From: a virus
Virus record (IMG/VR): IMGVR_UViG_3300022213_000237
Coordinates: 96,001 to 160,000 of that record
Strand: one strand, 5' to 3'
DNA length: 64,000 bases
Shown: piece by piece, positions 46,424 to 64,000 of the stretch
How positions within the stretch are numbered: position 1 is the stretch's first letter
Layout: every line of letters begins with the position of its first letter
Position numbers and translations under genes: made by a program
The notes under the pieces: generated by a model
What the model saw: only the letters and a program-made list of their open reading frames with translations
Databases searched by the model: none
What the model was told of the DNA's origin: nothing

Positions 46424-47028
46424 TTAAGCGCCCAGAAGACAATCTGACGAAAATAGAGCAGGAAGAGCTTACTAAGTATCGACGCAGTGATGGCTACGCG
46501 CCTTTAGCTGCGTCTACAGCCGTGCGGCTATATCAGTTGTTCTTGTTGGGCCACTCGTGTGAGGAGATTGTACGTACAAATGATAACCGTTTTCCGTTGG
46601 GTATGGTGGTCGATGCTCGCATTCGTCATGACTGGGATCGTCGTCGCACTGAGTATATCGATAGGCTGTATGAAGAGGCTGGAAGTATGGTGCGACAACG
46701 TCAAGTGGAAAGCGCTATGTTTCTTGGGGATATGCTTGCTGCGGCGCATGCAGAGTATGGCCCCAAATTCCAAAAGTTCATTCAATCAAGAGACCCGAAA
46801 GACCTGCCCCCAGAATTTAAAATAGATACTCCCACAAAATACAAGATGGTTATCGACGGCCTCATGAAGATAACTGGTCAAGACAAGAAAGATGCAGCCG
46901 GCGCAGCCGTCCAGGTTATCGGCAACAATGTTATGTTGCAGGAAAGCGGATCTAAAACCGTTACTTCTCAAGAAGGGTTTGACATTCTTAAGCAGCTAGA
47001 ACGTCTTGATAGTGAAAAGGTGAAGTAA
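46399..47028 (+). CDS. Probable terminase small subunit
   Basis: HTH-like LYQLFLLGHSCEEI..W; directly upstream of and coupled to the large terminase. Confidence 0.5.
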   Translation: MAEEDKEIIKRPEDNLTKIEQEELTKYRRSDGYAPLAASTAVRLYQLFLLGHSCEEIVRTNDNRFPLGMVVDARIRHDWDRRRTEYIDRLYEEAGSMVRQRQVESAMFLGDMLAAAHAEYGPKFQKFIQSRDPKDLPPEFKIDTPTKYKMVIDGLMKITGQDKKDAAGAAVQVIGNNVMLQESGSKTVTSQEGFDILKQLERLDSEKVK

Positions 47029-50000
47029 TGGACAAGCTACCGAAATTAACTCCGGCGCAGCTAGAATTTTTGGCTGCCAATAGAGAGCAACTTGAGCGCC
47101 GGGCGCTCTTTGCCGTCTGTATATCCAAAGAACATCTGCATGCCTGGATTAAGCGGTATCTGAAAATCGATCTGCCGGACACAATTGTCTGCGACGATGA
47201 CGTAACGACGCCTGCTTCTAACAGCACCCCCATGGACCTTGTGTGGGAAATTTATCAAAAGGCTTTACAGGGCGATGACGAGAAGTTTCAGCGCGTACTT
47301 GCTTACGCCGCGCGGGACAGCTTTAAAACACTATCCGCTTCGGTTCTAGAAATCCTTTGTTTGTTTCATCTTCGGCGCGACGTTGCCCACATGGCTGCCA
47401 TTGAAGCCCAGGCCCAAAAGGCTGCTTCGTATGTCTCTAAGTATTTGAATTTTCCTTATTTGCGAGACTTTGTATCAGGAAACAATAAACGTGAAATACG
47501 TATTACACGTTACGAAGATTCTCGAGGAAACATCCTTACCCCAAGAGAGTTCGAAGAACTAGAGCCTAGAGATCAGCGCAAATACGAGCCTATTTCTCAT
47601 TACATGAAGATCGTCATTGCGACCCTTAGCGGTGCGAATTGTGTAGACCCTACTACTTTTATTCGTCTAGCCAATGGAGAGGATGTTCTTGCTGTAGATA
47701 TTAAGTCTGGTGATGAAATTTTAAATTTTGATCTTAAAAATCACACTTGGACGACTTCTAAGGTTGGAAGTGTTGTGTCATCTATTAAAGCTGCTATGAA
47801 GGTTTCTTTGGATGACGGCTCCTATGTGGTTGTGTCCGAAGACCATCCAGTTTTGACTACTCGAGGATGGATTCGCGCCAGAGCTTTGCGGCTTACTGAC
47901 AAGGTTCTTCCTCCTCCAATTTCCAGTACAACTCAGGTAATTAAACCACCTATTTTGGCTGACGGCGTTACCTTGGAATCGTTTAGCGTCGATCAGTTAA
48001 TTTTGGGTTCTGTTCTTGGTGATTCTAGTTTGACGTGGCCCAAAAATTCATCTGGAGATAATTACGGTTCGGGGCCCCGTTTTCAAGTTTATCATTGCGC
48101 GGCCCAACTTCCTTATCTTTATCACAAGAAGGAGATCTTGGAGAATGCTGGCATTAAGTGTAGCGTATATATGGATCCACGTGGTGGTGGAAAATTAATG
48201 ACTGGAGTTTTACCTCAATACGCTGACTATTATCGGATGATGTATCCTGAGAATAAGAAGCAGGTAACCAAGGAATGGTTGTCTAAACTTACCGACGAAG
48301 GACTGGCTTATTGGTTAATGGATGACGGCTCCGGTTCTCCTCAGAAATTGGGGTCCAGAAAAGATAAACACATTTCAATAGCTACCTGTGGTTTTAGTTT
48401 ACAGGAACATCAATTAATAGTTGATTTGTTTTTAGCAAAAGGACTGAATCCCAAAATTGGGACAGTAACAAACCAAAGCTCCAAAACTTGGAATGTGATT
48501 GAATTTGATCTTGATTCTTCTAGAGAGTTATCGTCCCGTCTCGATAAATGGATCCATCCTGTATTGAAATATAAGTTCCCCACACCATTTCAGCTTCTAG
48601 ATACCAGGTGTATTGAGACTGGAGCACCAATACAGAGATCTTCTGGTCTTGGATTCAGTAGAATTACCCGCACTCCTAAGGTCTCTGAAAGAGAAAGATG
48701 GTCTGCTTTTAGAGATATGTTTACTCGAAGTATTCAACAATTAGAATTCTTGGGCAAACGAGTAATGATGGATATTTCTGTCGATACAGACGATGAGATG
48801 AAACGTAACTTCGTAGCTAACTCCTCGTTATTATTACATAATTCCGAGCATGTGAGTTTTATGGTTCTCGACGAACTCGACTTAGCTCCAGCTGGCCCGG
48901 TTGAAGAAGCAAAAATGATTCCCGCCCCAGGTCAGGTTCGCGGTGAACTTCCCATCACGTTCATGACGTCGACGCGCAAGTTTGCCATCGGACTTGTTCA
49001 GCAAGAAATAGATAAAGCTCAAAAGGACAGCGATTACCATTTACAGATTCGTCATTGGAATATCATCGACGTGACGAAGCGCTGTGAACCTAAACGCCAT
49101 CTGCCCGAAGAACCCAAAATTCCTATATATTATTCGGAGCACAGCCTACGGGCAATCAGTGAACCAGAGTACAACCTTCTTTCCACTGAAGAGAAGACCA
49201 AGTTCCTAAAGCAAGAAGGCTACGCTGGTTGTTTACGTAATTGTTCTTTGTTTGCTGTCTGCAAGGGGCGATTAGCTACTAAACAAAAGGTAACTGACGA
49301 CAATGTTAAGCCTAGGCCGATGTTAAAGCCTATTCCTCACGTCCTCACTCAATTCAAATCAGTCAATCCAGACCACGCTAAAGCGCAATTGATGTGCTGG
49401 AAACCTTCTTCGGAAGGACTCATATATCCCTTTTTTAATTACTCTCGTCACATGATTGATGCCGCCGAGATGTATGAAAAAATAACTGGTGAGGAAATTC
49501 CTAAAGACCAATTAAATAATTTTACCAAGGCTGACCTAATCAAGGTTCTGCAAGAACGTGAAGTCGAATTCTATACAGGCATGGACTGGGGTTATACTCA
49601 CAATTGGGCAGCTGTAACCGGGGCTAAGGTTGGTCACCGATTCTTTGTCTTTGACGTCATTGCGGTTGCTGAGCTGGAAGTCATGCAGAAGATAGAGATG
49701 TACAAAAATAAGTTGGGGTTCCTGGACGCCACTGTATTTGCTGACCCCGAAGATCGCTCTAGCATAGAGACCTTCCGAAAAAATGGTGTTCGCATGCGAA
49801 AATGGAAGAAGGGTAGCGTAATTGGTGGTATCGATGCCGTACGTACTAAACTAATGCCCGGTCTTAATAAAGAACCGGAACTGTATTTCCTGGCTAACGA
49901 TGAAGGTTGTGAGTTACTGGCGGATCGTATTGCCAAGTATGCCTGGGTTCTCGACGCTACCCAGAAACCTACCGATGTTCCTAGTGATTTTGAAGATGAT

Positions 50001-50288
50001 GAATGCGACGCCCTCAGATACGTGATTGTGAATTTGTTTGGTAATCGTAGCAATATGGTGGCGGCAATTGGTCCCGTGGCTCCCGGCGTTCAGTACGACC
50101 CTTCCTTTCCGGCGCCACGAGATGGAATGGGAATACCTCCTGGTATTTCCGTGTATCAAAACGAGACTATTCTTGAATCTACTACTGAAAATTGGATGGA
50201 TCGTAAAATTCAAGAACTTACCGGCAACCACGAAGATCCCAACGTCCCGAAATCCGGACGTAAAGGTTCTTTCAGCTTTGATTTTTGA
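47028..50288 (+). CDS. Terminase large subunit with intein
   Basis: AARDSFKT Walker A, VLDE Walker B, nuclease GMDWG..ADP..DDECDALRY. Confidence 0.9.
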   Translation: MDKLPKLTPAQLEFLAANREQLERRALFAVCISKEHLHAWIKRYLKIDLPDTIVCDDDVTTPASNSTPMDLVWEIYQKALQGDDEKFQRVLAYAARDSFKTLSASVLEILCLFHLRRDVAHMAAIEAQAQKAASYVSKYLNFPYLRDFVSGNNKREIRITRYEDSRGNILTPREFEELEPRDQRKYEPISHYMKIVIATLSGANCVDPTTFIRLANGEDVLAVDIKSGDEILNFDLKNHTWTTSKVGSVVSSIKAAMKVSLDDGSYVVVSEDHPVLTTRGWIRARALRLTDKVLPPPISSTTQVIKPPILADGVTLESFSVDQLILGSVLGDSSLTWPKNSSGDNYGSGPRFQVYHCAAQLPYLYHKKEILENAGIKCSVYMDPRGGGKLMTGVLPQYADYYRMMYPENKKQVTKEWLSKLTDEGLAYWLMDDGSGSPQKLGSRKDKHISIATCGFSLQEHQLIVDLFLAKGLNPKIGTVTNQSSKTWNVIEFDLDSSRELSSRLDKWIHPVLKYKFPTPFQLLDTRCIETGAPIQRSSGLGFSRITRTPKVSERERWSAFRDMFTRSIQQLEFLGKRVMMDISVDTDDEMKRNFVANSSLLLHNSEHVSFMVLDELDLAPAGPVEEAKMIPAPGQVRGELPITFMTSTRKFAIGLVQQEIDKAQKDSDYHLQIRHWNIIDVTKRCEPKRHLPEEPKIPIYYSEHSLRAISEPEYNLLSTEEKTKFLKQEGYAGCLRNCSLFAVCKGRLATKQKVTDDNVKPRPMLKPIPHVLTQFKSVNPDHAKAQLMCWKPSSEGLIYPFFNYSRHMIDAAEMYEKITGEEIPKDQLNNFTKADLIKVLQEREVEFYTGMDWGYTHNWAAVTGAKVGHRFFVFDVIAVAELEVMQKIEMYKNKLGFLDATVFADPEDRSSIETFRKNGVRMRKWKKGSVIGGIDAVRTKLMPGLNKEPELYFLANDEGCELLADRIAKYAWVLDATQKPTDVPSDFEDDECDALRYVIVNLFGNRSNMVAAIGPVAPGVQYDPSFPAPRDGMGIPPGISVYQNETILESTTENWMDRKIQELTGNHEDPNVPKSGRKGSFSFDF
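47640..48842 (+). mobile_element. Intein (401 aa) with LAGLIDADG endonuclease in terminase
   Basis: CVDPTT..SEDHP..LLHN/S; GSVLGDS and LAYWLMDDG motifs. Confidence 0.92.
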
Positions 50289-51304: not shown

Positions 51305-53323
51305 ATGGCCGAAAACAAATCACCTCCAGGACCATTGCAGGCCGTCGTCGATGCTAAGGTACAGCGCTCCGGTGGGCGTATCAAATTCTCTCTTCATGAT
51401 ATCGATGAAGAAGGGAAGCTCCGCAAGTCCAAGGAAGAAGAAAATCCGTTGGCGGGTACCAAGCTTCAAAAAAGTTTCGTCAATTACACCGAAGACGTTA
51501 AGCGTGGGAAGGAAGTTAATCGTCTATCTTTTGAGGTAGACCCGACACACGCAAATTATTATCAGTCGTTGTGGATGCCTAAGTGGGGGCAACTTCCTGA
51601 CCATGTCTTAAAACAAGTCTCCCTAAAAGATTCGTTGGTCGCCTCGATACTCACCATGCGCTCAAGCCAGATGTCTGCGTTTGGACGCGAATTGCAAGAT
51701 CGCTTTGCTTCTGGTTATCGTATTGAGCCTCGGCCAGGTGTGATGGAAGATGCGTCCAATGAGCAAAAGGAGCTGCTCCAGAAGAGAATTGAAGATGCCA
51801 GTAAGTTGATTTCTACTTGCGGCTCTATCGAGGGGGTTCGTTTTGATGAGCGCATGTCTCTTTCTACCTTTTTGTCGCTGCAAACCCGCAACGCTCTAGT
51901 TTTTGGTCGTTTTGCCACAGAAATTATATACACCCGAGATCCAGACGGAACTCGTAAATTTCACAGCTACCGGCCTGTCGATGCTGGGACCATTTACCAA
52001 GCGGCACCACGTCAAGATCATCTCAATCAAGTACGTAAAGAGGCTCTGCACCTACTTCAGCAGCTAAAAGGGCCAGATGCAGAAAAATTGAGTGCAGAAA
52101 AGTTTGAAAACGACGAATACGCCTGGGTGCAGGTGCTGGATGGCAAGCCTCGGCAAGCCTACACACCGGAAGAGATGGTCGTTCATAACATGTTTCCGTT
52201 AACGGATATTGAGTTGCGGGGTTATCCGATTAGTCCGATTGAAACCGTAATCGATGGCATCGCCACCCATATGAACATTGTACAGCACAATAAACTGTAC
52301 TTTCAAAGTGGTCGAGCTGCCCGTGGTATGGTCGTCATTAAGTCACCGGACGTAGACCAGGGACTTGTGGCGCAAATACGTCAACATTTTAACGCGTCTA
52401 TTAATTCTGTTTCTAACGCTTGGCGTGTACCTGTTTTTGGTGTTGACCCCGAAGATAGCGTCGAATGGGCACCCTTTGATATGTCCTCGGGCCGTGACAT
52501 GGAGTTTCAATACCTATCTGACCAAAACGCGCGGGAAATTTGTTCTGCGTTCTTGATTTCGCCAGAAGAGCTACCCGGCTATCAGCACCTTAGTCGCGGC
52601 ACTAACTCTCAGGCGCTTAGCGAAAGCTCTAATGAGTATAAGCTTGAGGCTGCTCGAGATGTCGGTATCCGGCCTCTACTTAATCATTTCCAAGATTTCT
52701 TAAATGATCACATTTTACCTCTTATCGACCCCGCAGTTGCGCAGCTGTGCTCGCTAAAGCTCTACGGTCTCGATGCTGATACCGAAGAGAAAGAAGATAC
52801 AGGTCTCACCAATCGTATGCAGATTGACCTGACCATGGACGAAATCCTTGAGCGTAAGGAAAAAGATCCAGTTGGGAAAGAGTGGGGAGGGAAGTTTCTC
52901 TTCAATCCTGCTTGGCAGTCGGTGCTAGATAAGTATTTTAAGGTTTCGGACATCAAAAAACATTTCTTTGGGTTACAGCCCACAGAAGACGATGAATATG
53001 TAAGAGACCCCTTTTGGTTCAATTACCAACAGCTGAAGATGCAGGCAGAGCAAATGGAGCAACAAGCTCAGGCGCAACAACAGCAAGCTCAAGCCGAGAG
53101 CGGTGGTGAAGTCCAGGACGAAAGCCAAGAACAGGATTCTCAATTAGCTCAAAGCGCAGACAAAGCCATTGATTTGATGAGCAAGAGCGAGAAACAACTG
53201 CCTCCCGGTAAACGGCGTTTGTTACATCTACACAAGAAAATCGTGAAAGACGCCATGGCGGAATGGGAAAAAGACAGTAAAGAAGCCTTGGCTGCGGTCG
53301 TGCAAGCCGTGAAGGACGAATAA
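51305..53323 (+). CDS. Portal protein
   Basis: RPVDAGTI, GYPISPIE, YFQSG..ARG, DMEFQ..REICSAFLISPEEL, GIRPLL; position after terminase. Confidence 0.9.
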   Translation: MAENKSPPGPLQAVVDAKVQRSGGRIKFSLHDIDEEGKLRKSKEEENPLAGTKLQKSFVNYTEDVKRGKEVNRLSFEVDPTHANYYQSLWMPKWGQLPDHVLKQVSLKDSLVASILTMRSSQMSAFGRELQDRFASGYRIEPRPGVMEDASNEQKELLQKRIEDASKLISTCGSIEGVRFDERMSLSTFLSLQTRNALVFGRFATEIIYTRDPDGTRKFHSYRPVDAGTIYQAAPRQDHLNQVRKEALHLLQQLKGPDAEKLSAEKFENDEYAWVQVLDGKPRQAYTPEEMVVHNMFPLTDIELRGYPISPIETVIDGIATHMNIVQHNKLYFQSGRAARGMVVIKSPDVDQGLVAQIRQHFNASINSVSNAWRVPVFGVDPEDSVEWAPFDMSSGRDMEFQYLSDQNAREICSAFLISPEELPGYQHLSRGTNSQALSESSNEYKLEAARDVGIRPLLNHFQDFLNDHILPLIDPAVAQLCSLKLYGLDADTEEKEDTGLTNRMQIDLTMDEILERKEKDPVGKEWGGKFLFNPAWQSVLDKYFKVSDIKKHFFGLQPTEDDEYVRDPFWFNYQQLKMQAEQMEQQAQAQQQQAQAESGGEVQDESQEQDSQLAQSADKAIDLMSKSEKQLPPGKRRLLHLHKKIVKDAMAEWEKDSKEALAAVVQAVKDE

Positions 53324-55323
53324 TGGCTAAGATCAAGCGCCTGTCTAAAAAGACGATGACTAAAATAGCCGACGCCGTCGACGCCCTCTTCGACAAAATG
53401 AAGGTGCGGCTTCTCGGCCCTCGTATGGTGGATAAGAAACTATTTATCACCTACAATCGCGAGAAATCGTTACCCGGTCTCTACGAGCAGGCGCATATCG
53501 AAGAGAAAGGTATTCCAGACAAGGAACATCTTGATCAATTGGTGCGTACCACTGAAAATTACTTAGAAGCAGTGCGTCATCGAGCGAAGGCTAAGACCGT
53601 GGTCGCGGTACAGTCATTTATGGCCGAAAATCCTGACGCTAATGTAACCGACGTCCTGGGTGGCGAACTTGCTGATATTTATGGTCAGGTTAAGCACGAG
53701 GTACGTAGGATTGCGGATACCGAAGCCCAGCATTTTCGCAATGTTGGTGTGATGGACGGTATTGTAAGAGTTAGCGCCGCCCACGGCATAAGTGATCCGA
53801 TAGTGTATTTTGTTACAGTCAGAGACCAATACAGATGCGAGGAATGTACCCGACTCCATTTGCTTGAAGACGGCATCACTCCACGTGTCTGGAAATTGTC
53901 CGAATTAGGACATGGATATCATCAAAAAGGTGATGAAAATCCAAAGGTTGGGGGACTACACCCACATTGTAGGTGCGTGTGGGATGGAAACGCACCTGTA
54001 ATTACAGAGTCTGGTATCAAACCACTTAAATCTGTAGAGATAGGCGACCGGGTATTGACTCATACTGGTAAGTTTAAGAAAGTTATTGGTACTTTTTCTA
54101 AAGATGGTCTACTGCCGGAGAAAACGGACGACGTATACCGAATAGAATTCAGGTCCCCGCTGGGAAAAATACACAAGCTGCGTGTTACCAACGATCACTT
54201 AATGTTAACTCAGCGTGGTTGGGTGAGGGCCGAGGCCCTGGTCCCCGGTAAAGATACATTAGAATATCTATTCGCTTCTTGTGAGACATGCAAAAAAGCA
54301 TTTCCTCATAATATTCAAAAGCCTCGAAAAAGATTCTGCTCTTATAAGTGTTCTATTTCTGACAAAATAGGTAAACCAAGTCCTACTCTTGGCAGGAAAG
54401 CTACACCAGAAGAAAAAGAGTTGAGATTAAAATCCATTAAAGCACTTTACGAAAAGAAGCACAAAACAACATTCCCCCAAAAGACTGTTAATTGTAACGG
54501 GTGCGGAAACGAGTTTACAGTTGAAACTGGGTATAGGGATAAGTCTGGACATTGGGTGTCTCGTAAGAATTATAAGCTCGAGTATTGCTCTCGATCGTGT
54601 ATTTCTAAGGCCATAGCTCTCAAACAATGGTCAAGTGCTGAACATAGACTTGCTGTTTCGGAAGCTAATCGAAAATCTATGTTAGAACAATATCGTACTG
54701 GCAGACGCAACCCTTTAGGTATTAAAGAAGCCAGGCAAGCTCTTTACGGTTTGGGTCGAGGCGGAAGTAAAGACGAGAAACGTTTGTATCAAACAATTAA
54801 AAGCTCTTACTTAGACGCCGAATCCAACTATTCGATAGGAAGATATTTTGCTGATGTTGCTATTCCATCTATTAAGACAGTTGTAGAGTGGGACGGTGGT
54901 GGTCACTGGCTTGATGTATATAAAGGCAAAAAGACTATGGAAGAAAAGATAGCTGAAGACGCAACTCGTGATGAGTTTATGAGAAGTTTGGGGTGGCACG
55001 TTCTCAGATATACAGAAGAAACAGGGTTTAGCACAATATTCGAAGATATCCGGAGGGTGGCTCAAAATTCTACTGGTCAATACTCATTCAGGCCTGTTGA
55101 AATTGTCAAAGTAGTTAGAATTCCAGCCAGCAAAGCCTCCCCTGGAAGGAGATTATATGATATAACTGTAGAGGATGATTCTTCTTTTGTTGTTATGGGT
55201 ATTGTTTCTCATAATTGTTCTATGACCACACTTCTTCCCGGATTCGGATTTGATAGTGCCGGTATGGTTGCGTGGAAGGGTGAACATCACGACGAGTTTG
55301 AGCGCCAGCGTGCAGGGCTTTAA
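53323..55323 (+). CDS. MuF/SPP1 gp7-like head morphogenesis protein with intein
   Basis: RRIADTE, D.YRCEEC, HPHCR/C split by an intein. Confidence 0.85.
   Translation: MAKIKRLSKKTMTKIADAVDALFDKMKVRLLGPRMVDKKLFITYNREKSLPGLYEQAHIEEKGIPDKEHLDQLVRTTENYLEAVRHRAKAKTVVAVQSFMAENPDANVTDVLGGELADIYGQVKHEVRRIADTEAQHFRNVGVMDGIVRVSAAHGISDPIVYFVTVRDQYRCEECTRLHLLEDGITPRVWKLSELGHGYHQKGDENPKVGGLHPHCRCVWDGNAPVITESGIKPLKSVEIGDRVLTHTGKFKKVIGTFSKDGLLPEKTDDVYRIEFRSPLGKIHKLRVTNDHLMLTQRGWVRAEALVPGKDTLEYLFASCETCKKAFPHNIQKPRKRFCSYKCSISDKIGKPSPTLGRKATPEEKELRLKSIKALYEKKHKTTFPQKTVNCNGCGNEFTVETGYRDKSGHWVSRKNYKLEYCSRSCISKAIALKQWSSAEHRLAVSEANRKSMLEQYRTGRRNPLGIKEARQALYGLGRGGSKDEKRLYQTIKSSYLDAESNYSIGRYFADVAIPSIKTVVEWDGGGHWLDVYKGKKTMEEKIAEDATRDEFMRSLGWHVLRYTEETGFSTIFEDIRRVAQNSTGQYSFRPVEIVKVVRIPASKASPGRRLYDITVEDDSSFVVMGIVSHNCSMTTLLPGFGFDSAGMVAWKGEHHDEFERQRAGL
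53974..55215 (+). mobile_element. Intein (414 aa) carrying Zn-finger and DUF559/Vsr-like endonuclease
   Basis: CVWDGNAP..TNDH..VSHN/C; internal CETC..FCSYKC, and YFADVA..VVEWDGGGHW..D..RDEFMRSLGWHVLR. Confidence 0.88.
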
Positions 55324-55481: not shown

Positions 55482-55553
55482 ATGGGTTTGTTGGACGCTA
55501 CCGGATTTGAGGTCACTGCGTTTACATTTTTGAGTGAAGACGTCAATGAATAA
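55482..55553 (+). CDS. Possible 23-aa leaderless leader peptide overlapping protease start
   Basis: ATG lies 6 nt after AATCTT; MGLLDATGFEVTAFTFLSEDVNE; its end overlaps ATG 55546. Confidence 0.3.
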   Translation: MGLLDATGFEVTAFTFLSEDVNE

Positions 55554-58500
55554 GCTAACTAAATCGATGGTTATTGATGGAATTGCAGCTTCACAAGCTA
55601 TTGATTCTTCAGGTGAAATCTTAGACATCGAAGGCTTAGATATTTCGTCAGTTAAAGAGGGTACGGCTCAAATAAATTACGAGCACCGCTCTGATTCGTC
55701 TGATGGGGCGAGCGCCAATGATATTATTGGCCATATCACTTACGCGAAGAAGATTTTTGGTCCCAAAGACTGCGAAAACGACCGACAACTTAAGTACTGG
55801 AATTCGGTCCAGTTACCGTTTGTGTACATCAAAGCCGAGCTTTTTGACGGTGAGGGGCATGTCGGAGCACAGGCAGCGGCGGCATTGATTCGATATTACC
55901 ACCTCCGACGCCTACCCCTTGTGGCGAGATACTCAATCGAGGGATCTACTTTAAAACGAGAAGGCAACACCCTCAAACGCTCTATAATGAAGAGGGTTTC
56001 TCTCACCGTAAAACCTTGTAATCGTTCATGCATTTCTGGTGTTCTTTCCGATGGCGAAAAACCCGAAGCTTCACCAGACGCGCTTGAAAGTCTTAAGCGT
56101 TTTGAGAATCCAGGTCGTGCGAAACTCGGCGGCTACGAAGGCGAATTCGAACCCGTGGTTTTAGACCCTCTTCAGAAGATGAGAGACGCGGTGGAATCGC
56201 TGCGTGAGATGAATAATCTCAATAAAGCTCTTTCAGCTGGCGGCTTTGATGCTGTCCCTACAACTCTTACTGGCGGAGCCGCACTTTCGGCTGAGAATTT
56301 TGGCGACGTTGAGAAGAGAAAGAAATTTATTAAGAATCAGGTTCTTGGCGCCGTACGTGATTGGCGAGGTCGTGGTGACCTTCGGAAGTTTCTGAAGCAT
56401 CGTATGCCCGACGCATCAGAGGACTTCATCAATCATTTTGCTGCTCTGGTCGAAGACTATCAACTTAAGAAGTTTGCCGACCTTGAAGCCAACCTAAATA
56501 AGGCAGTAGCTGGCGGCGCCGTTGCAGGTAAGACTCCAGCGGCTGCGATACAGCCCGCAGACAAACTGGCACCAAAGAAACCTGATTCTAAGGTCCAGAC
56601 CAAGGCCAAGGCACAAAAGCTGGCGACCGTGGAGCAACATCACGCCAAAGTCAAAGCCACACAAGAAAACGAAGATAACCTAACCGAAGCCGACCTTGGC
56701 GATCAACCTTTAACCGTGCGCGGTAAAGCGGTACGCGCGAACGACAATATCACGTCTCCTCATTTTGATGAGCGAACAGGTACTCTACACACTCAACGCG
56801 GGTCCTTCAAGATGTACTTGCCGCAGGAAGATAAATTCCCAGGCGCTTTAGAGTCATTCCATAACGCTCTGAATGATCCAAAGGCTACTCATTTCCATGA
56901 CTACGCTACCAGTAATTGGCTGAAGGTTCACAAACTTCTTAAGGAGGGTCGTCTGCCTCCGGAAGTGATTATGCACAGTGTGTTGTTTTCACAACTGAGT
57001 CCCAATACACCTGTCCCCATGCAGGAGCTAATGTACGGACATTTAGTGGACACCATGAAGGAAAAAGGGGTAGATGCCCGTTCGCCTTCATTCTCTTCTA
57101 TTAAAGACGATTGGATAGGCAGAGATACCGGTAAGAAATTCCCTGAAGTGGCGGGAGATTTTTTCCAACAGAATCAAGGAATCCGTCTCAAAAACCCAAC
57201 ATCTACTAGAGAAGCTGGAGATATGGGGAGTTTCATGCTTGCGAACAACAAGTTCAAAAACATGGAACAGTATCATGGTCTCCATAATTCGTTAGTGGAG
57301 CTGTTTGGTCGTCATAGTACCGATGCCCGCGCAGCCGTTTCCGAGCTTATGGGTCATAAGCATAAAGCCAACTTGTGGGAAGCAAGGCGTGCTCGCGAAA
57401 TCGAGAAAGGTAGACCCGATCCTGGTGAATATGCCGATGGCCCAGCAGTCCCAGGCCTAGCACCAAAGACTGGACGCTACATGGCGGCCATGATTGGCGG
57501 CGGCAACGTCCACGTGCCAGATACCCATTTTGCCCGTTATTTATTTGGTCTCGAGAAGGGTACGGATAAGCGTTCAATTGCTTACCTCAAAAACACTTTA
57601 TGGAATCCCAACAACAGTCACGTTCTTGAGGGTATCGATCGTTTTTACGCCACGAATCACCCAGCTGTCCAGCACATGATGGATCATCCTGTTTTTGGTA
57701 AACAGTTTGCTTCCCGCGAAGACGCTATTTTCCCCGCGTTCTGGAAGAATTGGATAGCTATCGCACCACACGAGCGAGCACGCAAAATGAAGACCATGGC
57801 TTACAACGAAGCCACGGACCATAAACCTTTCTGGGAAGCCATCGCTCCATTTACGAAAGCAGAAAACGACGATGTGAGCTTTGACTTTGGTGCTAATGCG
57901 GACACACATGCACATGCGCGTAAGGTTGTTAATCGATTACGAGAACCTAATCGTTCTGTGGGTCATGCTTTTGTGGATTATGTTGTTGGCAAGTCCCCAA
58001 AACGTCCAGATATTCACCCCGACCTGGAACGACATCTAGCTCGTCACGGCATTGTTGATCCAGCTGGATACGGATTCGATGAATCTGGCCGCAGTATGCG
58101 CCGACCTATTCCGGGTCCGCGTAAAATTGGTCGCGGCGAGGAGCCTCGAGACCTACACAGATTCAGGATGATGAATCGTGGCTGGGATCCCGGCTACGTC
58201 AAAGGCGAGCTAGAGAAGTCTGAATCCGGAAATACATTGCCGCAGCAAACGGCACGGCTGCATGCTCAATGGGTTGAGCAATACGGCGAGATTCCGGCGC
58301 AAATGCTATACTACGCTCACATCGTTCCTCAGCTGTTGCGCGCGAGCCGCAGAAACGAGAACGTGATTGTCAAGTTTCAGCGTATAGCCGAAGATTTACG
58401 TAAGGCCGTACCTCAAGACCCGCCATTGCCAGAATTACCTAAACACGACACCACAGGCTTACATGAGTTTCAGAATTCTTGGACTAAGCCCGGTGAAATC

Positions 58501-59622
58501 GAACTAACAGCCGGCCCATTCAAAGGCAGTAAGCTCGCATATCTTGGTAAGGATAGCTTGAAAGGTAAGCATTTTGCTAAAGCCCCGACCGGCGAACTAC
58601 ATACTCTACCATTTAGTCAGGAAGGCAAGGCGTTCAAAATCAATGTTCCGCCTCAACCCGTCAAATTGCCGGCGTATGTGGATGCAAATCAACATAGCGA
58701 TCCTCTTAATAAGACGTTTGCTCAGAAGTCGCTCTTACACGGCATTGATATCAATGATCGTGTGGGTCGCATCGAAACCGAAACACTTACGTCCAGCGCC
58801 CCAGGTGCCGGTTGGTATAAGAATCATGCGGGTGAGATGGGTTTGGTCAAACCTGATCCAAAAGGGGCTGCAGATTGGTGGGCTGATGAAGATCCAGAGT
58901 ATGTTCGTGCTCAAAAATCTTACGACTTGCCAAGTCGTGAAGCTTTGTATCCGGTCATGGCCAAAGAATTTTTCGGCATGGGTCAATATGTGCCCACTAC
59001 CGCCAAGTTTACTCATCCTAAGACGGGCGAGCCTATGTCCGTTCAGCAGCGAGTTGCTGGCGCCGAACATGTCGACATAGATGACGACGACCACGCCTAC
59101 AATTTACACAAACTCTACAGTCAAGGCGAGTTAGATAAGTTAGGCCTCATGGATATCTTGATGGGTAATAATGATCGCCATCAAGGTAATTTTATGATGA
59201 CTTCAAAAGAGCCACATGTTCATCTAATAGATAACGGATTATCTTTGGATTACAAGAATCCGTTGATACCTCACGAAGTATGGCTATCTCATCAATGGAT
59301 GACTGACCATATGCATGGGCATCCCAGCTTCGGCGCTCATCCGATTCATGCAGCCGCCACCAACTGGTTGCTTGGATTGGATCATGGAGAATTTGTTAAA
59401 CAACTTCTTAACCATGGTGTTCCCGAAAACATTGTCAAGCATGCGTCGCGACGCATGCAGGCTCTACAATTAGAAGCTGCGCAATCAAAACTCGACCCCG
59501 CGCAGCCGTTTACACGGGCCCGCGCTGGCCACGTTGTCGATAACCTCAATGGATTTGTCAATCGTTGGGGTTCACCATTTGTAGCGGCAAAACCTAAGGC
59601 CACAAATTCGGACTCAGAGTAA
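55546..59622 (+). CDS. Prohead protease polyprotein (protease + HhH-GPD-like + kinase-like domains)
   Basis: N-terminal HK97-type protease (GIAASQAIDSSGE, INYEH, YSIEG, VSLTVKPCN); VPGLAPKTG..VPDTHFAR; C-terminal DILMGNNDRHQGN..LIDNG. Confidence 0.8.
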   Translation: MNKLTKSMVIDGIAASQAIDSSGEILDIEGLDISSVKEGTAQINYEHRSDSSDGASANDIIGHITYAKKIFGPKDCENDRQLKYWNSVQLPFVYIKAELFDGEGHVGAQAAAALIRYYHLRRLPLVARYSIEGSTLKREGNTLKRSIMKRVSLTVKPCNRSCISGVLSDGEKPEASPDALESLKRFENPGRAKLGGYEGEFEPVVLDPLQKMRDAVESLREMNNLNKALSAGGFDAVPTTLTGGAALSAENFGDVEKRKKFIKNQVLGAVRDWRGRGDLRKFLKHRMPDASEDFINHFAALVEDYQLKKFADLEANLNKAVAGGAVAGKTPAAAIQPADKLAPKKPDSKVQTKAKAQKLATVEQHHAKVKATQENEDNLTEADLGDQPLTVRGKAVRANDNITSPHFDERTGTLHTQRGSFKMYLPQEDKFPGALESFHNALNDPKATHFHDYATSNWLKVHKLLKEGRLPPEVIMHSVLFSQLSPNTPVPMQELMYGHLVDTMKEKGVDARSPSFSSIKDDWIGRDTGKKFPEVAGDFFQQNQGIRLKNPTSTREAGDMGSFMLANNKFKNMEQYHGLHNSLVELFGRHSTDARAAVSELMGHKHKANLWEARRAREIEKGRPDPGEYADGPAVPGLAPKTGRYMAAMIGGGNVHVPDTHFARYLFGLEKGTDKRSIAYLKNTLWNPNNSHVLEGIDRFYATNHPAVQHMMDHPVFGKQFASREDAIFPAFWKNWIAIAPHERARKMKTMAYNEATDHKPFWEAIAPFTKAENDDVSFDFGANADTHAHARKVVNRLREPNRSVGHAFVDYVVGKSPKRPDIHPDLERHLARHGIVDPAGYGFDESGRSMRRPIPGPRKIGRGEEPRDLHRFRMMNRGWDPGYVKGELEKSESGNTLPQQTARLHAQWVEQYGEIPAQMLYYAHIVPQLLRASRRNENVIVKFQRIAEDLRKAVPQDPPLPELPKHDTTGLHEFQNSWTKPGEIELTAGPFKGSKLAYLGKDSLKGKHFAKAPTGELHTLPFSQEGKAFKINVPPQPVKLPAYVDANQHSDPLNKTFAQKSLLHGIDINDRVGRIETETLTSSAPGAGWYKNHAGEMGLVKPDPKGAADWWADEDPEYVRAQKSYDLPSREALYPVMAKEFFGMGQYVPTTAKFTHPKTGEPMSVQQRVAGAEHVDIDDDDHAYNLHKLYSQGELDKLGLMDILMGNNDRHQGNFMMTSKEPHVHLIDNGLSLDYKNPLIPHEVWLSHQWMTDHMHGHPSFGAHPIHAAATNWLLGLDHGEFVKQLLNHGVPENIVKHASRRMQALQLEAAQSKLDPAQPFTRARAGHVVDNLNGFVNRWGSPFVAAKPKATNSDSE

Positions 59623-59626
59623 AGAT

Positions 59627-60079
59627 ATGATCTCCAACGGCATCTACAGACTATATAAGCTCCATCACGATGAGCTAAACAATACGACCCGGAGTCTAGC
59701 TGGACGAATTCTCGTACACGATGGGCAGATTGAGCACCTTGAAGATCATGGCGGCATGGACCGTTTACTACCCTCAGGTCCAGTCACTCCCGCGTTGGAG
59801 CGCAGATTCTCTCGTCTCACCTCCAGCGGTTACCACGAATTAATTAACGAAGCCGACATCGCGGCGGGCCATCATCCCGACGAAGTACAAGACCTAGATG
59901 TAGGTCCTGTTGAAGCAGAACATAAATTCATCATGACTGGCGATGGGGTTTCTACACCCGCAATGGTGGAAATGTGGGACGACATTATTACCGTCGATGG
60001 TCGTGAACTTGATGCTGTCGAAGCACACTCCCTACTCAATGAAGTAGCTGGCGGTAGGATTGTTCTTACACCAATCTAA
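59627..60079 (+). CDS. Hypothetical protein in head module
   Basis: 150-aa ORF. Confidence 0.55.
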   Translation: MISNGIYRLYKLHHDELNNTTRSLAGRILVHDGQIEHLEDHGGMDRLLPSGPVTPALERRFSRLTSSGYHELINEADIAAGHHPDEVQDLDVGPVEAEHKFIMTGDGVSTPAMVEMWDDIITVDGRELDAVEAHSLLNEVAGGRIVLTPI

Positions 60080-60108
60080 GATCTATCGCTATCCCGAGCA
60101 TAGGAACC

Positions 60109-61335
60109 ATGAGCAAAAATATTCTTAAACTTTTTGACGACCTCAAAAAAATGGACCCAACGCTCTCGCAAGCATTGGCAAATATTCGTGCTGGTCGCGC
60201 TACGCCTCAAGATGCAGATGTAGTCAGCAGGGGCCTATACACAGACACGATGATTCCGCGTATTGGCAATAAATACGCTTATAATGATCATGTTTCTCGA
60301 CACGCAAATGATGGCATCCATACCCATTTAGATTTAAACGATTTTCGTCAAATCAATAAACAGCATGGCCAGCAACACGGGGACGCCGCCATTAAACAAT
60401 TTGGTAACATTGCAGCCGACGTATCCCGCATGTTTGGCGGCAAAATGCATCGCCGTGGCGGCGACGAGTTTTCTGCTTGGTTTCATCGTCCGGAAGCTGC
60501 GCACGGGTTTGCGCGCGAACTCAGAAATCGGTTAGAGAAAACTCCTAAAGTCGCGGGTACACACAATCTCGCAGCTTCTATCGGTATCGGCTACACACCA
60601 GAGCATGCCGAGAAGGCCTTACTCGAGGCCAAAAAGCAACTTGGTTCCACGGATCCAACTACAGGTCAACGTGTTAATGTGCATAGTGTAGGAAACGCTC
60701 CTACCGTAATCCATAGCTTGACTCACGAACAGCCTCCCGAAAACTGGAAGCCATCTAAAGGTCAGGCGCCCGGCCAAGCCAAAGAGTTGCCATCTTTAGC
60801 TCCAGCCGGATTACAATTTAATAACCCGCTCGCAAAAAGTACTGCTAAACAGCCGGTACCCTCAAAACATCCGGCTCTAGAAGGTGGAAGAGTAGGTATC
60901 ATGACTGGTGAAAATCCTTTTCATCCGGCTACCGCCTCTGGCGGGAACGCGGGTCTCGAAAACGAGTTACGGAGTAGGGGGTTGCGTTTTGAGAAGGTTA
61001 AGGGAAAGTATTCTGAAGGTGAGCCAGAAAATAGTTTCATCATTCACGACGTCGATGCTCCAACGCTAATGGATTTAGGTAAACGCTACGGGCAAGACAG
61101 CGTACTCCATTCTCATAATGGTACTCATAAACTAATTTACACAAACGGACCTAATGAAGGCACATATCACCCTGGTCACGGATTAACGGTTCATCCACAA
61201 GAGCCGGAAATGTACTATTCGACCTTAGTCCATAATGGGAATCCGGTTCACTTCACTATGAACTTGGATTTTGATCAGAAACTTCCTTTGTCTTCTCATT
61301 CGACTCAGAAGCCTTCGAACCACGAGCAGCAATAA
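60109..61335 (+). CDS. GGDEF diguanylate cyclase-like protein with C-terminal DUF3293-like domain
   Basis: D..PRIGNK, DLNDFRQIN..HG..HGD, RGGDEF, ASIGI; C-terminal IMTGENP..L..RG..E.SF..GKRYGQDSV. Confidence 0.85.
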   Translation: MSKNILKLFDDLKKMDPTLSQALANIRAGRATPQDADVVSRGLYTDTMIPRIGNKYAYNDHVSRHANDGIHTHLDLNDFRQINKQHGQQHGDAAIKQFGNIAADVSRMFGGKMHRRGGDEFSAWFHRPEAAHGFARELRNRLEKTPKVAGTHNLAASIGIGYTPEHAEKALLEAKKQLGSTDPTTGQRVNVHSVGNAPTVIHSLTHEQPPENWKPSKGQAPGQAKELPSLAPAGLQFNNPLAKSTAKQPVPSKHPALEGGRVGIMTGENPFHPATASGGNAGLENELRSRGLRFEKVKGKYSEGEPENSFIIHDVDAPTLMDLGKRYGQDSVLHSHNGTHKLIYTNGPNEGTYHPGHGLTVHPQEPEMYYSTLVHNGNPVHFTMNLDFDQKLPLSSHSTQKPSNHEQQ

Positions 61336-62161: not shown

Positions 62162-63088
62162 ATGCCTAAAAAGACTTACACAAACGAAGAGCTGAACGCG
62201 CTGGTGGCCGAGTTTTCCGCAGAGTTCGACCAGCTCGTTAAAGCAGAAGTCGCAAAAAGCGGTGCTGCTTTAGCCAAGTCTGAAGAACTTCGTAAGGACG
62301 ATGAGTCCAGCGATGGAGATGACCAGAAGTCGCCTCCTCCAGACAGCGCTTCCGCAGATGCTTCTTCACCTGCTCCGGCAGCTTCCGCAACTTCTCCAGA
62401 CCCAGCTTCTCCTGCAGACGCTTCGGCACCTCCTGCAGACGCTTCGGCACCTCCGGCTCCCGACGCTTCTGCTTCTGCTCCGGCAGACCCCGCAGCTTCT
62501 GCGGCAGGAAGCGATCCTATGGCGGCTCTGACTCAGGCGTATTCGCAACTCTCTCCAGATGAGTTGGCTATGCACTTTCAGGCGCTTAAGCAGGTTCTTA
62601 TGGCCGGTCAAGCTGGCGCCGAAGGCGCTGGAATGCCCGCAGACCCTATGGCAGGCTCTTCTGCTCCGGCTGCAGGTCCAGCAGCAGTAGCTCCTCTCGC
62701 AGGAGAAGGAAGCCAGCCTGTCGATCCAGCATCGACGATGGCGCTCAAGAGCGAAAACGAAGAATTGACTCTCGTCAAGTCTGAGCGTGATGCCGCCGCA
62801 ATGAAAATTGCGGAACTTGAGAAGTCCGTTGCTGCACTTACCGATTCACTCGGCAAAGTGTTGGCTCAGCCGATGCGAAAATCAATCACCGGCAAAGACA
62901 TCGCAGGTGTTCTTGCTACTGACCCGAAACCGGCTCCTAAGTATGAGTCGATGACGAAGTCTGAAATTACTAAAAAGCTACTCACTGTAGCTAACGACCC
63001 CGCACTGAAGAAGTCGGATCGTCAACTGATTAACAACTATTACAAGGGTGAAGCAAATGTCGAAGCCCTTGCACACCTTCTCAGCTAA
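62162..63088 (+). CDS. Capsid scaffold protein
   Basis: Ala/Pro/Asp low-complexity and coiled segments, many xxK-S motifs, directly before the capsid gene. Confidence 0.75.
   Translation: MPKKTYTNEELNALVAEFSAEFDQLVKAEVAKSGAALAKSEELRKDDESSDGDDQKSPPPDSASADASSPAPAASATSPDPASPADASAPPADASAPPAPDASASAPADPAASAAGSDPMAALTQAYSQLSPDELAMHFQALKQVLMAGQAGAEGAGMPADPMAGSSAPAAGPAAVAPLAGEGSQPVDPASTMALKSENEELTLVKSERDAAAMKIAELEKSVAALTDSLGKVLAQPMRKSITGKDIAGVLATDPKPAPKYESMTKSEITKKLLTVANDPALKKSDRQLINNYYKGEANVEALAHLLS
62411..62452 (+). repeat. 21-bp perfect tandem repeat in scaffold (PADASAP x2)
   Basis: cctgcagacgcttcggcacct twice. Confidence 0.9.
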
Positions 63089-63126: not shown

Positions 63127-64000
63127 ATGGCCGCAGGACTAATTGAAAAGCTAGACGAGCTGCGCAAAGCTTTGGAAGCGGGTAACTTCAACGCCCGTCC
63201 TTCGAGCCTTGTTCAGGGCTCCGCAATGCAAGTGGAAGACATTTCGCCAGTGATGGTTAATGTCACCTACAATGACAAAACTCTTAAACTCCAGAAGAAA
63301 CTGGGAGTGAAGCCCGCGAAGGGAACCTTCATCCAGTTCCTACGACGTTTGTCGTACGGTACCTGGGGCGGATCCGCTCAGCTCGAAGGAGCAGTTGGTA
63401 ATGAGCAGACCGGTGATTACGTACGTGCCGGTATTCCGATGGCGTACTACTCGGAAGTTCGTCGCGTCACCCACGTGGCATCGCTCGTCAAGACTGTTAC
63501 TGGCGAAGATCCGAAAGAGCTGGAAGCGGAAGCCGCTGCTCTTCGTCTCGCTGGCGACATCGAGTTCGACTGTTTCCGTGGCAAGGCCGACTTCACCAAC
63601 GCAGGCGTGTTCGATGGTAACCCCAACGTCATCCCCGCGCTCGCGAACATGATTGGTCTCGAAGTTCAGATCCGTCAGTCCGATCTGCAGAGCAACACCC
63701 AGGACCTGATGTTCGAAGCCTACGGCTCGGGCCTCTCGGTCGTCATCAATGGTGGCTCGACGCTGTCGAAGAGCAACATCGAAGACGCTCATGTTCGTAG
63801 CCAGATGAACCACGGCACTGCGGACAAGCTCTTTGTCGACCCTCTCGTTCTGTCCGCACATAACAAAATTATGTGGAACAACGAGCGCGTGGTTCTCGGC
63901 GCTTCCGCCCAGGATGCGACCGGTCAAGACCTTCGTCGCCAGTTTGTTTCCGGCGGTATGGTCGAAATCGAAGCTTCCCGTTTCCTCTCGGGCAAGTTCA
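63127..64000 (+). CDS. Major capsid protein (3' truncated; not in ORF track)
   Basis: AAGGAG RBS; MAAGLIEKLDELRKALEAGNFNARPSSLVQGSAMQVEDIS..LAGDIEFDCFRG; pattern like SPO1/Twort-type capsid proteins; open to the window end. Confidence 0.9.
   Translation, partial: MAAGLIEKLDELRKALEAGNFNARPSSLVQGSAMQVEDISPVMVNVTYNDKTLKLQKKLGVKPAKGTFIQFLRRLSYGTWGGSAQLEGAVGNEQTGDYVRAGIPMAYYSEVRRVTHVASLVKTVTGEDPKELEAEAAALRLAGDIEFDCFRGKADFTNAGVFDGNPNVIPALANMIGLEVQIRQSDLQSNTQDLMFEAYGSGLSVVINGGSTLSKSNIEDAHVRSQMNHGTADKLFVDPLVLSAHNKIMWNNERVVLGASAQDATGQDLRRQFVSGGMVEIEASRFLSGKF

Follow-up and report, generated by a model that had tools for sequence, protein, structure and literature searches.

Packaged effectors are known from a few model phages, in which each cargo carries its own targeting signal, and the motif of the T4 head protease is LxE. 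The internal proteins and Alt of T4 and the Dar proteins of P1 are enzymes or anti-restriction proteins that the prohead takes up and that are delivered along with the DNA, and the T4 head protease trims the internal cargo at a motif common to the capsid protein (PMC9024508, PMC5512222). The capsid protein of P1 is cleaved at E120/S121 (PMC9024508), and that of HK97 at K103/S104 (PMC10275583). In SPN3US (gp245) and in phiKZ, one prohead protease acts at one motif on many head proteins, including the portal, ejection proteins and the protease itself (PMC10052503). The "polyvalent proteins" of Iyer et al. 2017 are multi-enzyme phage chains with a processing peptidase, whose genes lie among those for virion proteins; delivery with the DNA and cutting into units are predicted for them, and the survey lists kinases, GNAT and assemblin-like peptidases (PMC5512222).

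In the protein encoded by the locus described here, the cargo apparently travels attached to the protease by which it would later be freed. The parts of the chain are separated by the lysine motif that is also present in capsid, scaffold and portal, and it is therefore probable that this phage packs enzymes into its head. The cargos of T4 and P1 are separate proteins with a short N-terminal targeting sequence, whereas here the putative cargo is covalently attached to the protease and the cut would follow lysine. Nearly all cuts detected in SPN3US remove N-terminal propeptides of separate proteins (PMC10052503), and its protease carries no fused enzyme. The locus differs from the polyvalent proteins in that the peptidase is N-terminal and is the phage's own head protease, with a motif common to structural head proteins.

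The head module and its polyprotein

The window, i.e. the whole stretch of 64,000 nucleotides that was analysed, holds the head module of a 169.6-kb phage related to Myxococcus phage Mx1. The gene order (TerL, portal, MuF-like, polyprotein ORF, scaffold-like, capsid) is identical in Mx1 and seven metagenome contigs; thus, as in Mx1, the protease-bearing gene is placed between the portal/MuF and the scaffold/capsid genes. The features discussed below are the following:

51305..53323, plus strand: portal protein, with LQKS at residue 54 (nucleotide 51464) and MSKS at residue 625 (nucleotide 53177)
55534..59622, plus strand: polyprotein ORF, 1362 residues, GTG start, homologue of the Mx1 "putative prohead protease"
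55567..56211, plus strand: prohead protease domain (residues 12-226) of probable gp21/assemblin fold, with H51 and S134 invariant
56218..56229, plus strand: site A, LNKA, residues 229-232
56218..56469, plus strand: capsid N-arm copy (residues 229 to about 260) and small helical domain (to about residue 312)
56494..56505, plus strand: site B, LNKA, residues 321-324; relatives have [LMI]KK[AS] about 10 residues upstream
56713..57849, plus strand: predicted HhH-GPD glycosylase-fold module, residues 394-772, with K645 and D663 invariant in 71 sequences
57850..57861, plus strand: site C, FTKA, residues 773-776; [LM]xK[ASTN] in relatives
57862..58209, plus strand: 116-residue insert (residues 777-892) between FTKA and LEKS
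58210..58221, plus strand: LEKS, residues 893-896, the downstream border of the insert
58222..58395, plus strand: conserved helical piece of about 60 residues (897-954)
58396..58407, plus strand: site D, LRKA, residues 955-958; L[RM]K[AGD] in relatives
58408..59619, plus strand: PI3/PI4-kinase-like module, residues 959-1362
59627..60079, plus strand: 150-residue protein, fused to the GGDEF protein in relatives, with the motif at the junction
60109..61335, plus strand: GGDEF protein, with LAKS at residue 241 (nucleotides 60829-60840) followed by a DUF3293 / SAM-lyase-like domain
62162..63088, plus strand: scaffold-like protein, 308 residues, pI 4.5, with seven motifs, five of them at positions conserved in relatives
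63127..64000, continuing beyond the window to 64530, plus strand: major capsid protein, with LRKA at residues 12-15 (nucleotides 63160-63171), before the N-arm block

A preliminary description had started the polyprotein at 55546, an alternative ATG corresponding to residue 5 of the ORF. Its coordinates for the ORF and for the motifs (LNKA at 56218 and 56494, FTKA at 57850, LEKS at 58210, LRKA at 58396) proved correct, and the HhH-like segment (residues 639-668) and the kinase motifs DRHQGN (residue 1214) and IDNG (residue 1232) were found where it had placed them. The polyprotein combines several unrelated enzyme domains in one chain among virion genes, as polyvalent proteins do. The N-arm copy follows the consensus KAL.AG....AP..LTGGAAL..E; a complex prediction for the capsid protein with the arm-like segment scored 0.00 and gave no verdict either way. 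The 116-residue insert is absent from the aligned relatives and has no family match.

A reading frame of this length could be artefactual, produced for example by reading through several distinct genes or by chimeric assembly. We found nothing in favour of this and consider it hardly credible, given that Mx1 and the seven metagenome contigs possess the identical fused frame, and that among the 205 clusters matched by the middle module almost all are long chains in which it has a constant location.

Elsewhere the genome encodes a second PI3/4K-like domain, fused to GNAT, in keeping with modules of an accessory kind; multi-domain proteins other than the polyprotein, with kinase domains of this type and GNAT/NUDIX domains, resemble polyvalent effector proteins.

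Protease and enzyme modules

The assignment of the N-terminal domain as a prohead protease, made in the preliminary description, is supported by structural matches to capsid proteases, obtained with a low-confidence model (pLDDT 55). VIA-align matched the model best to T4 gp21 (5jbl_A, Z 7.4, rmsd 3.6, 113 aa) and next to herpesvirus assemblins (Z about 5), and the top rows of Foldseek were mostly herpesvirus assemblin proteases (E 0.02-0.1). We therefore predict an assemblin-like fold with moderate confidence. Across 60 family sequences H51 and S134 never vary and H109 hardly does; a catalytic role of H51 and S134 is assumed from their position. Searches with seven members found no Pfam or PHROG match to the domain, even at E up to 10, and neither a single sequence nor a profile found a sequence match in the PDB. 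Pfam family models thus miss this protease, unlike gp4 of HK97, to which hhalign provided a weak match (E 0.0016, probability 16%) with S134 four residues off the expected serine.

The middle module (380 aa) was modelled with a pLDDT of 96.7. In an all-against-all comparison with VIA-align, the top 22 of 48,161 chains all belong to the HhH-GPD superfamily; the best match, T. maritima Ogg (3n0u_A), has a Z of 14.8 with 207 of 209 residues aligned, as compared to Z of about 5 at most for unrelated folds. The fold was detected only in this way: Foldseek against the PDB reported nothing significant for the module, a shape search of the ESM Atlas returned only TM < 0.3, the Pfam HhH-GPD model and solved glycosylases gave no sequence match at E up to 5-10, and PDB sequence searches with the module profile and its HhH segment yielded chance matches only. 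K645 and D663 align without gaps to K120 and D138 of E. coli EndoIII (hhalign, E 0.002), which we take to be the lysine of the HhH motif and the catalytic aspartate, respectively. According to the model, then, the HhH-GPD-like segment of the preliminary description is part of a true HhH-GPD-fold domain, which shares with the Ogg/EndoIII glycosylases the fold, the lysine of the HhH motif and, 18 residues further on, the aspartate (D663), and differs from them in about 170 extra residues, present as insertions, and in its location in a head protein. The predicted glycosylase-like product is basic (pI 9.2) and of roughly 50 kDa.

We also considered thymidine hypermodification, with the kinase acting together with a glycosylase-fold transferase, and found it unsupported: the PaMx11 transferase reaches only Z 3.6, and the neighbours are an ordinary ThyX and dNMP kinase.

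The C-terminal module exceeds the gathering cut-off of Pfam PF00454 (31-32.8 vs 27.1 bits) over 51 aa only, a match that spans just the catalytic and activation loops, and the best PDB matches of its profile are to type II PI4K (E 0.018). In 40 sequences D1214, R1215, N1219 and D1233 are invariant, while K1106 and E1136 reach a conservation of 90% or more; the conserved features thus comprise the DRxxxN catalytic loop, the metal-binding Asp, and the ATP-binding Lys and Glu. The PI3/4K-like kinase proposed earlier is therefore present, with its catalytic residues intact. The kinase of the polyvalent proteins is instead of a truncated Ser/Thr/Tyr type, and a glycosylase is never mentioned in their survey (PMC5512222). 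A virion-borne HhH-GPD enzyme was not reported in the literature searched, nor did that survey or our literature searches report an HhH-GPD fold and a PI3/4K-like kinase as phage head proteins.

The lysine motif in head proteins and at domain borders

The motif [LFM]xK[AS] had been proposed to separate the modules and to recur in other head proteins. The scaffold carries all of the variants listed for it (LVKA, LAKS, LVKS, LEKS, MRKS, MTKS and LKKS), and further copies lie in the capsid protein (LRKA at 12), the portal (LRKS, LQKS and MSKS) and the GGDEF protein (LAKS at 241). Shuffling within proteins confirms that the motif is enriched in head proteins: the scaffold has 7 matches vs 0.9 expected, a number reached in none of 2000 shuffles, the polyprotein 7 vs 2.3 (p=0.01), and the portal 3 vs 1.0. 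The whole genome contains 87 matches vs 67.5 expected, and 20 of the 87 fall in the portal, polyprotein, GGDEF, scaffold and capsid proteins, i.e. in 6% of residues. When the pattern is generalized to [LFMIV]-x-Z-[AST] in the same five proteins, lysine alone is enriched at Z (26 vs 11.1, z 4.8), and none of the other 19 residues exceeds a z of 1.5.

Since the motif was defined post hoc, from looking at the sequence, its conservation in relatives constitutes an independent test, and a strong one. Site A has lysine in 141/141 relatives; its P3 position is hydrophobic in 140/141, and P1' is occupied by A or T in 136/141. Motif sites of the portal, scaffold and capsid proteins occupy aligned positions that are conserved in relatives, e.g. 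the portal LQKS is kept in 8/8 and MSKS in 7/8. The motif is located at domain borders and not within folded domains, with a density of 9.55 per 1000 aa outside domains vs 1.3-1.9 within the protease, glycosylase-like, helical and kinase domains, and across 189 relatives it is 5-7 times denser between domains than within them. It flanks only 12 of 132 large inter-domain segments of the relatives on both sides and 70 on one side, which counts against the polyprotein reading given below. Counts within the family also overstate the number of independent events, because its sequences are related to each other.

Gene borders and protein ends of relatives coincide with the motif as well. Three relatives (L004, L007 and L008) have the 150-residue protein joined to the GGDEF protein, and the motif marks the joint, which in the window is a boundary between genes. 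In Mx1 the GGDEF protein ends with ...NPLK, and its counterpart in the window reads NPLAKS, followed by the DUF3293 / SAM-lyase-like domain that is missing from the Mx1 protein. The SAM-lyase match of this domain is borderline (27.9 bits vs a cut-off of 28), and a PDB search with it gave chance matches only.

In HK97 the sequence at the cut is F-N-K-S, and all four matches to the motif lie within the 103-residue domain that is removed. The two systems are alike in the fold class of the protease, the position of its gene, the motif (hydrophobic-x-K|S/A), and the Gly-rich N-arm that follows the cut. They differ in that gp4 of HK97 has 225 aa and no enzymes, while the protease here bears about 1130 extra residues, and in that HK97 has its scaffold built into the capsid protein as a domain, while here it is a separate protein and the propeptide lost by the capsid protein would have just 14 aa. 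From the match of the lysine motif to the HK97 site we infer that the protease would cleave the head proteins, and sequence comparison makes self-processing of the polyprotein at its lysine sites a well supported prediction. A different view would be that the motif merely reflects the composition of linkers and helix ends, or serves for binding, and that the protein works as an uncut multi-domain chain; linkers and scaffolds are indeed rich in K, A, S and L, and the post hoc choice of the motif would favour such a view. However, the excess survives shuffling that preserves composition, lysine is the only one of 20 residues enriched, the lysine of site A is invariant, the site proven for HK97 has the identical motif, and the ends of genes and proteins in relatives coincide with it, so that we regard this alternative as quite improbable.

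Proposed loading, processing and delivery

Our favoured reading, which we hold to be somewhat probable, is that the polyprotein is a self-loading, self-processing head chain, from which the freed enzymes are packaged and delivered. The N-terminal serine protease (of HK97/T4 gp21/assemblin fold) would be built into the procapsid with the rest of the chain carried along, and the adjacent copy of the capsid N-arm possibly helps in loading. Once active, the protease would cut after Lys in [LMIVF]-x-K|[AST], taking off the 14-residue capsid propeptide, fragmenting the scaffold, trimming both ends of the portal, and severing its own chain where the modules meet. The products would be an HhH-GPD glycosylase/lyase-like enzyme of ~50 kDa, a PI3/4K-like kinase of ~45 kDa and, in this phage, additionally a 13.6-kDa piece; the halves of the GGDEF protein may come apart in the same way. 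Most likely the freed enzymes would be retained inside the head in the manner of internal proteins and reach the next host together with the DNA; we infer retention and ejection by analogy with T4 Alt and internal proteins, P1 Dar and the polyvalent proteins. Our literature search found no virion proteomics for Mx1 or its relatives. Scaffold and propeptide fragments normally leave the head, and cutting does not imply retention.

The preliminary description had further raised the question of whether cargo is swapped at the motif. Modules do differ between relatives at the borders: one relative with an 86%-complete genome lacks the glycosylase-like module anywhere in its record, another has a protease of 432 aa with neither module in that protein, P0095 and P0146 contain GGDEF within the chain, and P0057 contains GNAT. 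However, most of about 190 relatives keep the core order, from protease through arm, glycosylase-like module and helical piece to kinase, and this is the commonest architecture, which points to a fairly stable set with occasional additions instead of a freely swapped cargo rack. Of the cargo reading as first put forward, the folds and the motif at the borders are thus supported.

The conserved core order would also suit a constant task in assembling the head or handling DNA, which speaks against the delivery reading.

The chain might also be loaded and cut, with its modules acting only in the producing cell or prohead, e.g. in processing or checking of DNA during packaging or in modification of head proteins, and then being expelled or degraded with the scaffold. 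The prevalence of the five-part order, and the glycosylase-like module being the best conserved part of the chain (70% mean column identity among close relatives) and the host of an intein in P0058, suggest an important function, in line with such a role, and propeptides usually exit the head (PMC10052503). On the other hand, some relatives keep the same head genes without one or both modules, the kinase and GNAT/NUDIX domains recur in the other polyvalent-like proteins of this genome, and the basic pI of the glycosylase-like product is expected of a protein that stays with DNA. We consider an exclusively producer-side role unlikely, and prefer packaging and delivery of the freed enzymes.

An extension of the delivery reading, which we put forward tentatively and consider doubtful in its full form, is that the head protease serves as the cargo carrier of a large group of uncultured phages. 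The N-arm copy would act as an address tag, and any module placed behind an HK97-type lysine site would enter the prohead, be released by cutting, and be injected with the DNA. The DNA of the host or the incoming DNA would then be the substrate of the glycosylase/lyase, and host signalling would be rewired by the kinase and the GGDEF cyclase, all before expression of any phage gene.

The family comprises at least 205 sequence clusters with the glycosylase-like module, and we found no published description of it. The rule proposed for it, a lysine site plus a copy of the arm, is simple, and Mx1 is a cultured phage. With the connection to the HK97 cut site, cleavage sites become predictable in many phages of the HK97 type, and the locus suggests a route for loading foreign proteins into capsids. 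If the carrier and address-tag reading is true, these phages would possess a natural programmable system for protein packaging.

Domain organization of the polyprotein

The window covers bases 96001-160000 of a 169,567-bp record that is rated a complete virus. Within the phage collection searched, Myxococcus phage Mx1 (169.6 kb) is the one cultured relative of this virus. The head module comprises, in this order, a large terminase, a 325-aa protein, the portal, a MuF-like protein, a 1362-aa ORF (the polyprotein), a 150-aa protein, a GGDEF protein, a 149-aa protein, an acidic scaffold-like protein and the major capsid protein, and the gene order is common to seven metagenome contigs. The polyprotein is 50% identical, over 88% of the length, to the Mx1 gene annotated as "putative prohead protease". 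Two of the head genes are interrupted by inteins, namely those for the large terminase (47028-50288; LAGLIDADG endonuclease) and the MuF-like protein (53323-55323; DUF559/Vsr-like nuclease with zinc-finger-like motifs). The Mx1 homologs lack these inteins, and the alignments span the gaps.

Parts of the polyprotein (55534-59622, plus strand)
aa 12-226: protease domain (predicted structure, invariant H51 and S134)
aa 229 to about 260: capsid N-arm copy, a repeat of the capsid protein N-terminus
aa 394-772: glycosylase-like module, a single confident predicted domain
aa 959-1362: kinase module (Pfam PI3/PI4 kinase)

The commonest architecture among the 189 sequences of the family is protease, arm, glycosylase-like module, helical piece and kinase. 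The protease domain found no match in any sequence library searched, and confidence is low (pLDDT 55) in its structural model, which was built from 7 sequences. With this model, Foldseek retrieved mainly herpesvirus capsid proteases, and the best structure in VIA-align was gp21, the capsid protease of T4 (Z 7.4, rmsd 3.6, 113 residues). H51 and S134 are invariant across 60 family members, and the profile matches HK97 gp4 weakly (E 0.0016), with the serine slightly out of register. We accept aa 12-226 as a predicted capsid protease with an assemblin-class fold, outside all curated sequence families. The adjoining arm copy is identical to the capsid N-terminus at 14 of 37 ungapped positions (pair E 6e-9; about 54% identity in one relative), and its block K-A-L-x-A-G-x4-A-P-x2-L-T-G-G-A-A-L-x2-E is near-universal among 141 family sequences.

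The model of the glycosylase-like module (71 sequences) has a pLDDT of 96.7 and a pTM of 0.94. In an exhaustive structural comparison the top 22 chains all belong to the HhH-GPD superfamily, led by the 8-oxoguanine glycosylase of T. maritima (Z 14.8, 207 of its 209 residues aligned) and followed by human OGG1, EndoIII, Mag1, MutY and AlkA; the first unrelated folds appear at Z ~5. Two invariant residues, K645 and D663, match K120 and D138 of EndoIII in an ungapped alignment; in bifunctional glycosylases these positions are known to supply the Schiff-base lysine and the catalytic aspartate. The kinase module scores above the Pfam cut-off for PI3/PI4 kinases in its catalytic and activation loops. 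Its DRxxxN loop is conserved, as are the metal-binding Asp and the ATP-binding Lys and Glu; by profile, the closest solved structures are type II PI4-kinases, matched weakly (E 0.018).

A shared lysine motif in head proteins

The preliminary description proposed [LFM]xK[AS] as a processing motif of the head protease, and every motif and coordinate it listed was found in the sequence. Within the polyprotein, four sites concern us here: A (LNKA, aa 229), B (LNKA, aa 321), C (FTKA, aa 773) and D (LRKA, aa 955). Shuffling each protein with its composition kept showed an enrichment in head proteins: the scaffold has 7 motifs against 0.9 expected (7 was reached in none of 2000 shuffles), the polyprotein 7 against 2.3 (p=0.01) and the portal 3 against 1.0, with 87 against 67.5 genome-wide. 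Of the 20 residues placed in turn at the K position, lysine alone was enriched (z 4.8) in the five head proteins, namely portal, polyprotein, GGDEF protein, scaffold and capsid protein; every other residue stayed at z <=1.5.

Site A has K in 141/141 family sequences, with L, M, V, I or F at P3 in 140 and A (102) or T (34) at P1'. At sites B, C and D the motif lies in a short stretch close to the domain end in 71%, 51% and 72% of sequences, respectively (background ~5 per 1000 residues). Per 1000 residues, the motif occurs 9.55 times in the regions between modelled domains and 1.3-1.9 times within the domains, so the refuting condition of the preliminary description, that it falls inside folded domains, does not hold. 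Among relatives, the portal site at residue 54 is kept in 8/8 and that at residue 625 in 7/8, amid variable surrounding sequence; conservation is also seen at the capsid site and at five sites of the scaffold. All these sequences are mutually related, so the counts do not represent independent events.

The capsid protein of HK97 is cleaved at K103/S104 (PMC10275583), a site that reads F-N-K-S in the HK97 record. The remaining three matches (IQKA, LTKS, LIKS) all lie within the removed 103 residues, and the mature 281 residues contain none. The motif therefore corresponds to HK97-type specificity; as such it is not new, and cleavage at the K sites of the polyprotein and head proteins of this phage is likely. 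A single LTKS falls at residue 180 of the 225 in the HK97 protease gp4 itself (L016, the HK97 genome, 3348-4025), which would fit a possible self-cut near the C-terminus.

Variation of modules among relatives

In a 583-aa relative the protease and arm are joined straight to the kinase, and no glycosylase-like module was found anywhere in its record (86% complete); another, on a 167-kb contig, is a 432-aa protease with neither module. Two relatives (P0095 and P0146) carry an in-chain GGDEF domain and one a GNAT domain. The window polyprotein has a 116-residue insert between FTKA and LEKS, absent from aligned relatives. The 150-aa protein (59627 on) and the GGDEF protein (to 61335), separate genes in the window and in Mx1, form one gene in four relatives: in L004, L007 and L008 the motif marks the junction, and L006 has LRKA at residue 194. 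The Mx1 GGDEF protein stops at ...NPLK; its counterpart in the window has NPLAKS at that point and extends into a DUF3293/SAM-lyase-like domain. Swapping of modules at the motif does occur, but not as a rule: of 132 large inter-domain segments, only 12 are flanked by the motif at both ends. Large inserts within the glycosylase-like module, one of them an intein, lack flanking motifs.

These inserts (320-650 aa) split the module at one conserved spot in family members P0058, P0093, P0097, P0041 and P0070; of the two tested, that of P0058 matches an intein splicing domain and that of P0093 has no family match. The C-terminal domain of the GGDEF protein (60829-61335), absent from the Mx1 protein, scores 27 bits for DUF3293 (cut-off 25) and 27.9 bits, just below the cut-off of 28, for the S-adenosylmethionine lyase family. 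The known anti-restriction enzymes of phages include SAM lyases.

Outside the window, an 818-aa protein (L012:56-2512, genome bases 56-2512) combines a GNAT acetyltransferase with a second PI3/PI4-kinase-like domain, 33% identical to the polyprotein kinase over 112 residues. Another multi-domain protein, of 841 aa (L011:7943-10468, window-equivalent 70943-73468), combines GNAT and NUDIX domains and looks like a polyvalent protein; the corresponding place in Mx1 holds a longer protein annotated as "NUDIX hydrolase". Directly after the capsid gene (L011:1656-5080, window-equivalent 64656-68080) the genome encodes a 586-aa protein that carries several helix-turn-helix motifs and is absent from this position in Mx1, as well as a ThyX thymidylate synthase and a dNMP kinase.

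Possible fate of the enzyme modules

In the favoured mechanism the polyprotein would enter the procapsid along with its own protease, and its K sites would be cut together with those of capsid, scaffold and portal; the freed enzymes would then remain in the head and be injected. We infer retention and injection because T4 Alt and internal proteins, P1 Dar proteins and polyvalent proteins offer precedents, the modules are dispensable in some relatives, the glycosylase-like product is basic (pI 9.2), and the genome encodes other multi-domain proteins (GNAT with NUDIX; GNAT with the second PI3/4K-like kinase). Alternatively, the modules may act solely in assembly or DNA packaging. The preliminary interpretation as a whole, in which enzymes are loaded into the prohead, cut free at the motif and ejected with the DNA, is partly supported.

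In the polyvalent proteins described by Iyer et al. (2017), assemblin-like peptidases are rare and always C-terminal, and glycosylases are nowhere mentioned in that survey (PMC5512222); in giant phages many head proteins are cut at one motif by one protease, but the substrates are separate proteins (PMC10052503). The present system differs in that the N-terminal carrier is the phage's own head protease, the cut motif is common to the structural proteins, and the putative cargo is a glycosylase fold with a PI3/4K-like kinase. The proposed system is directly testable in Mx1.
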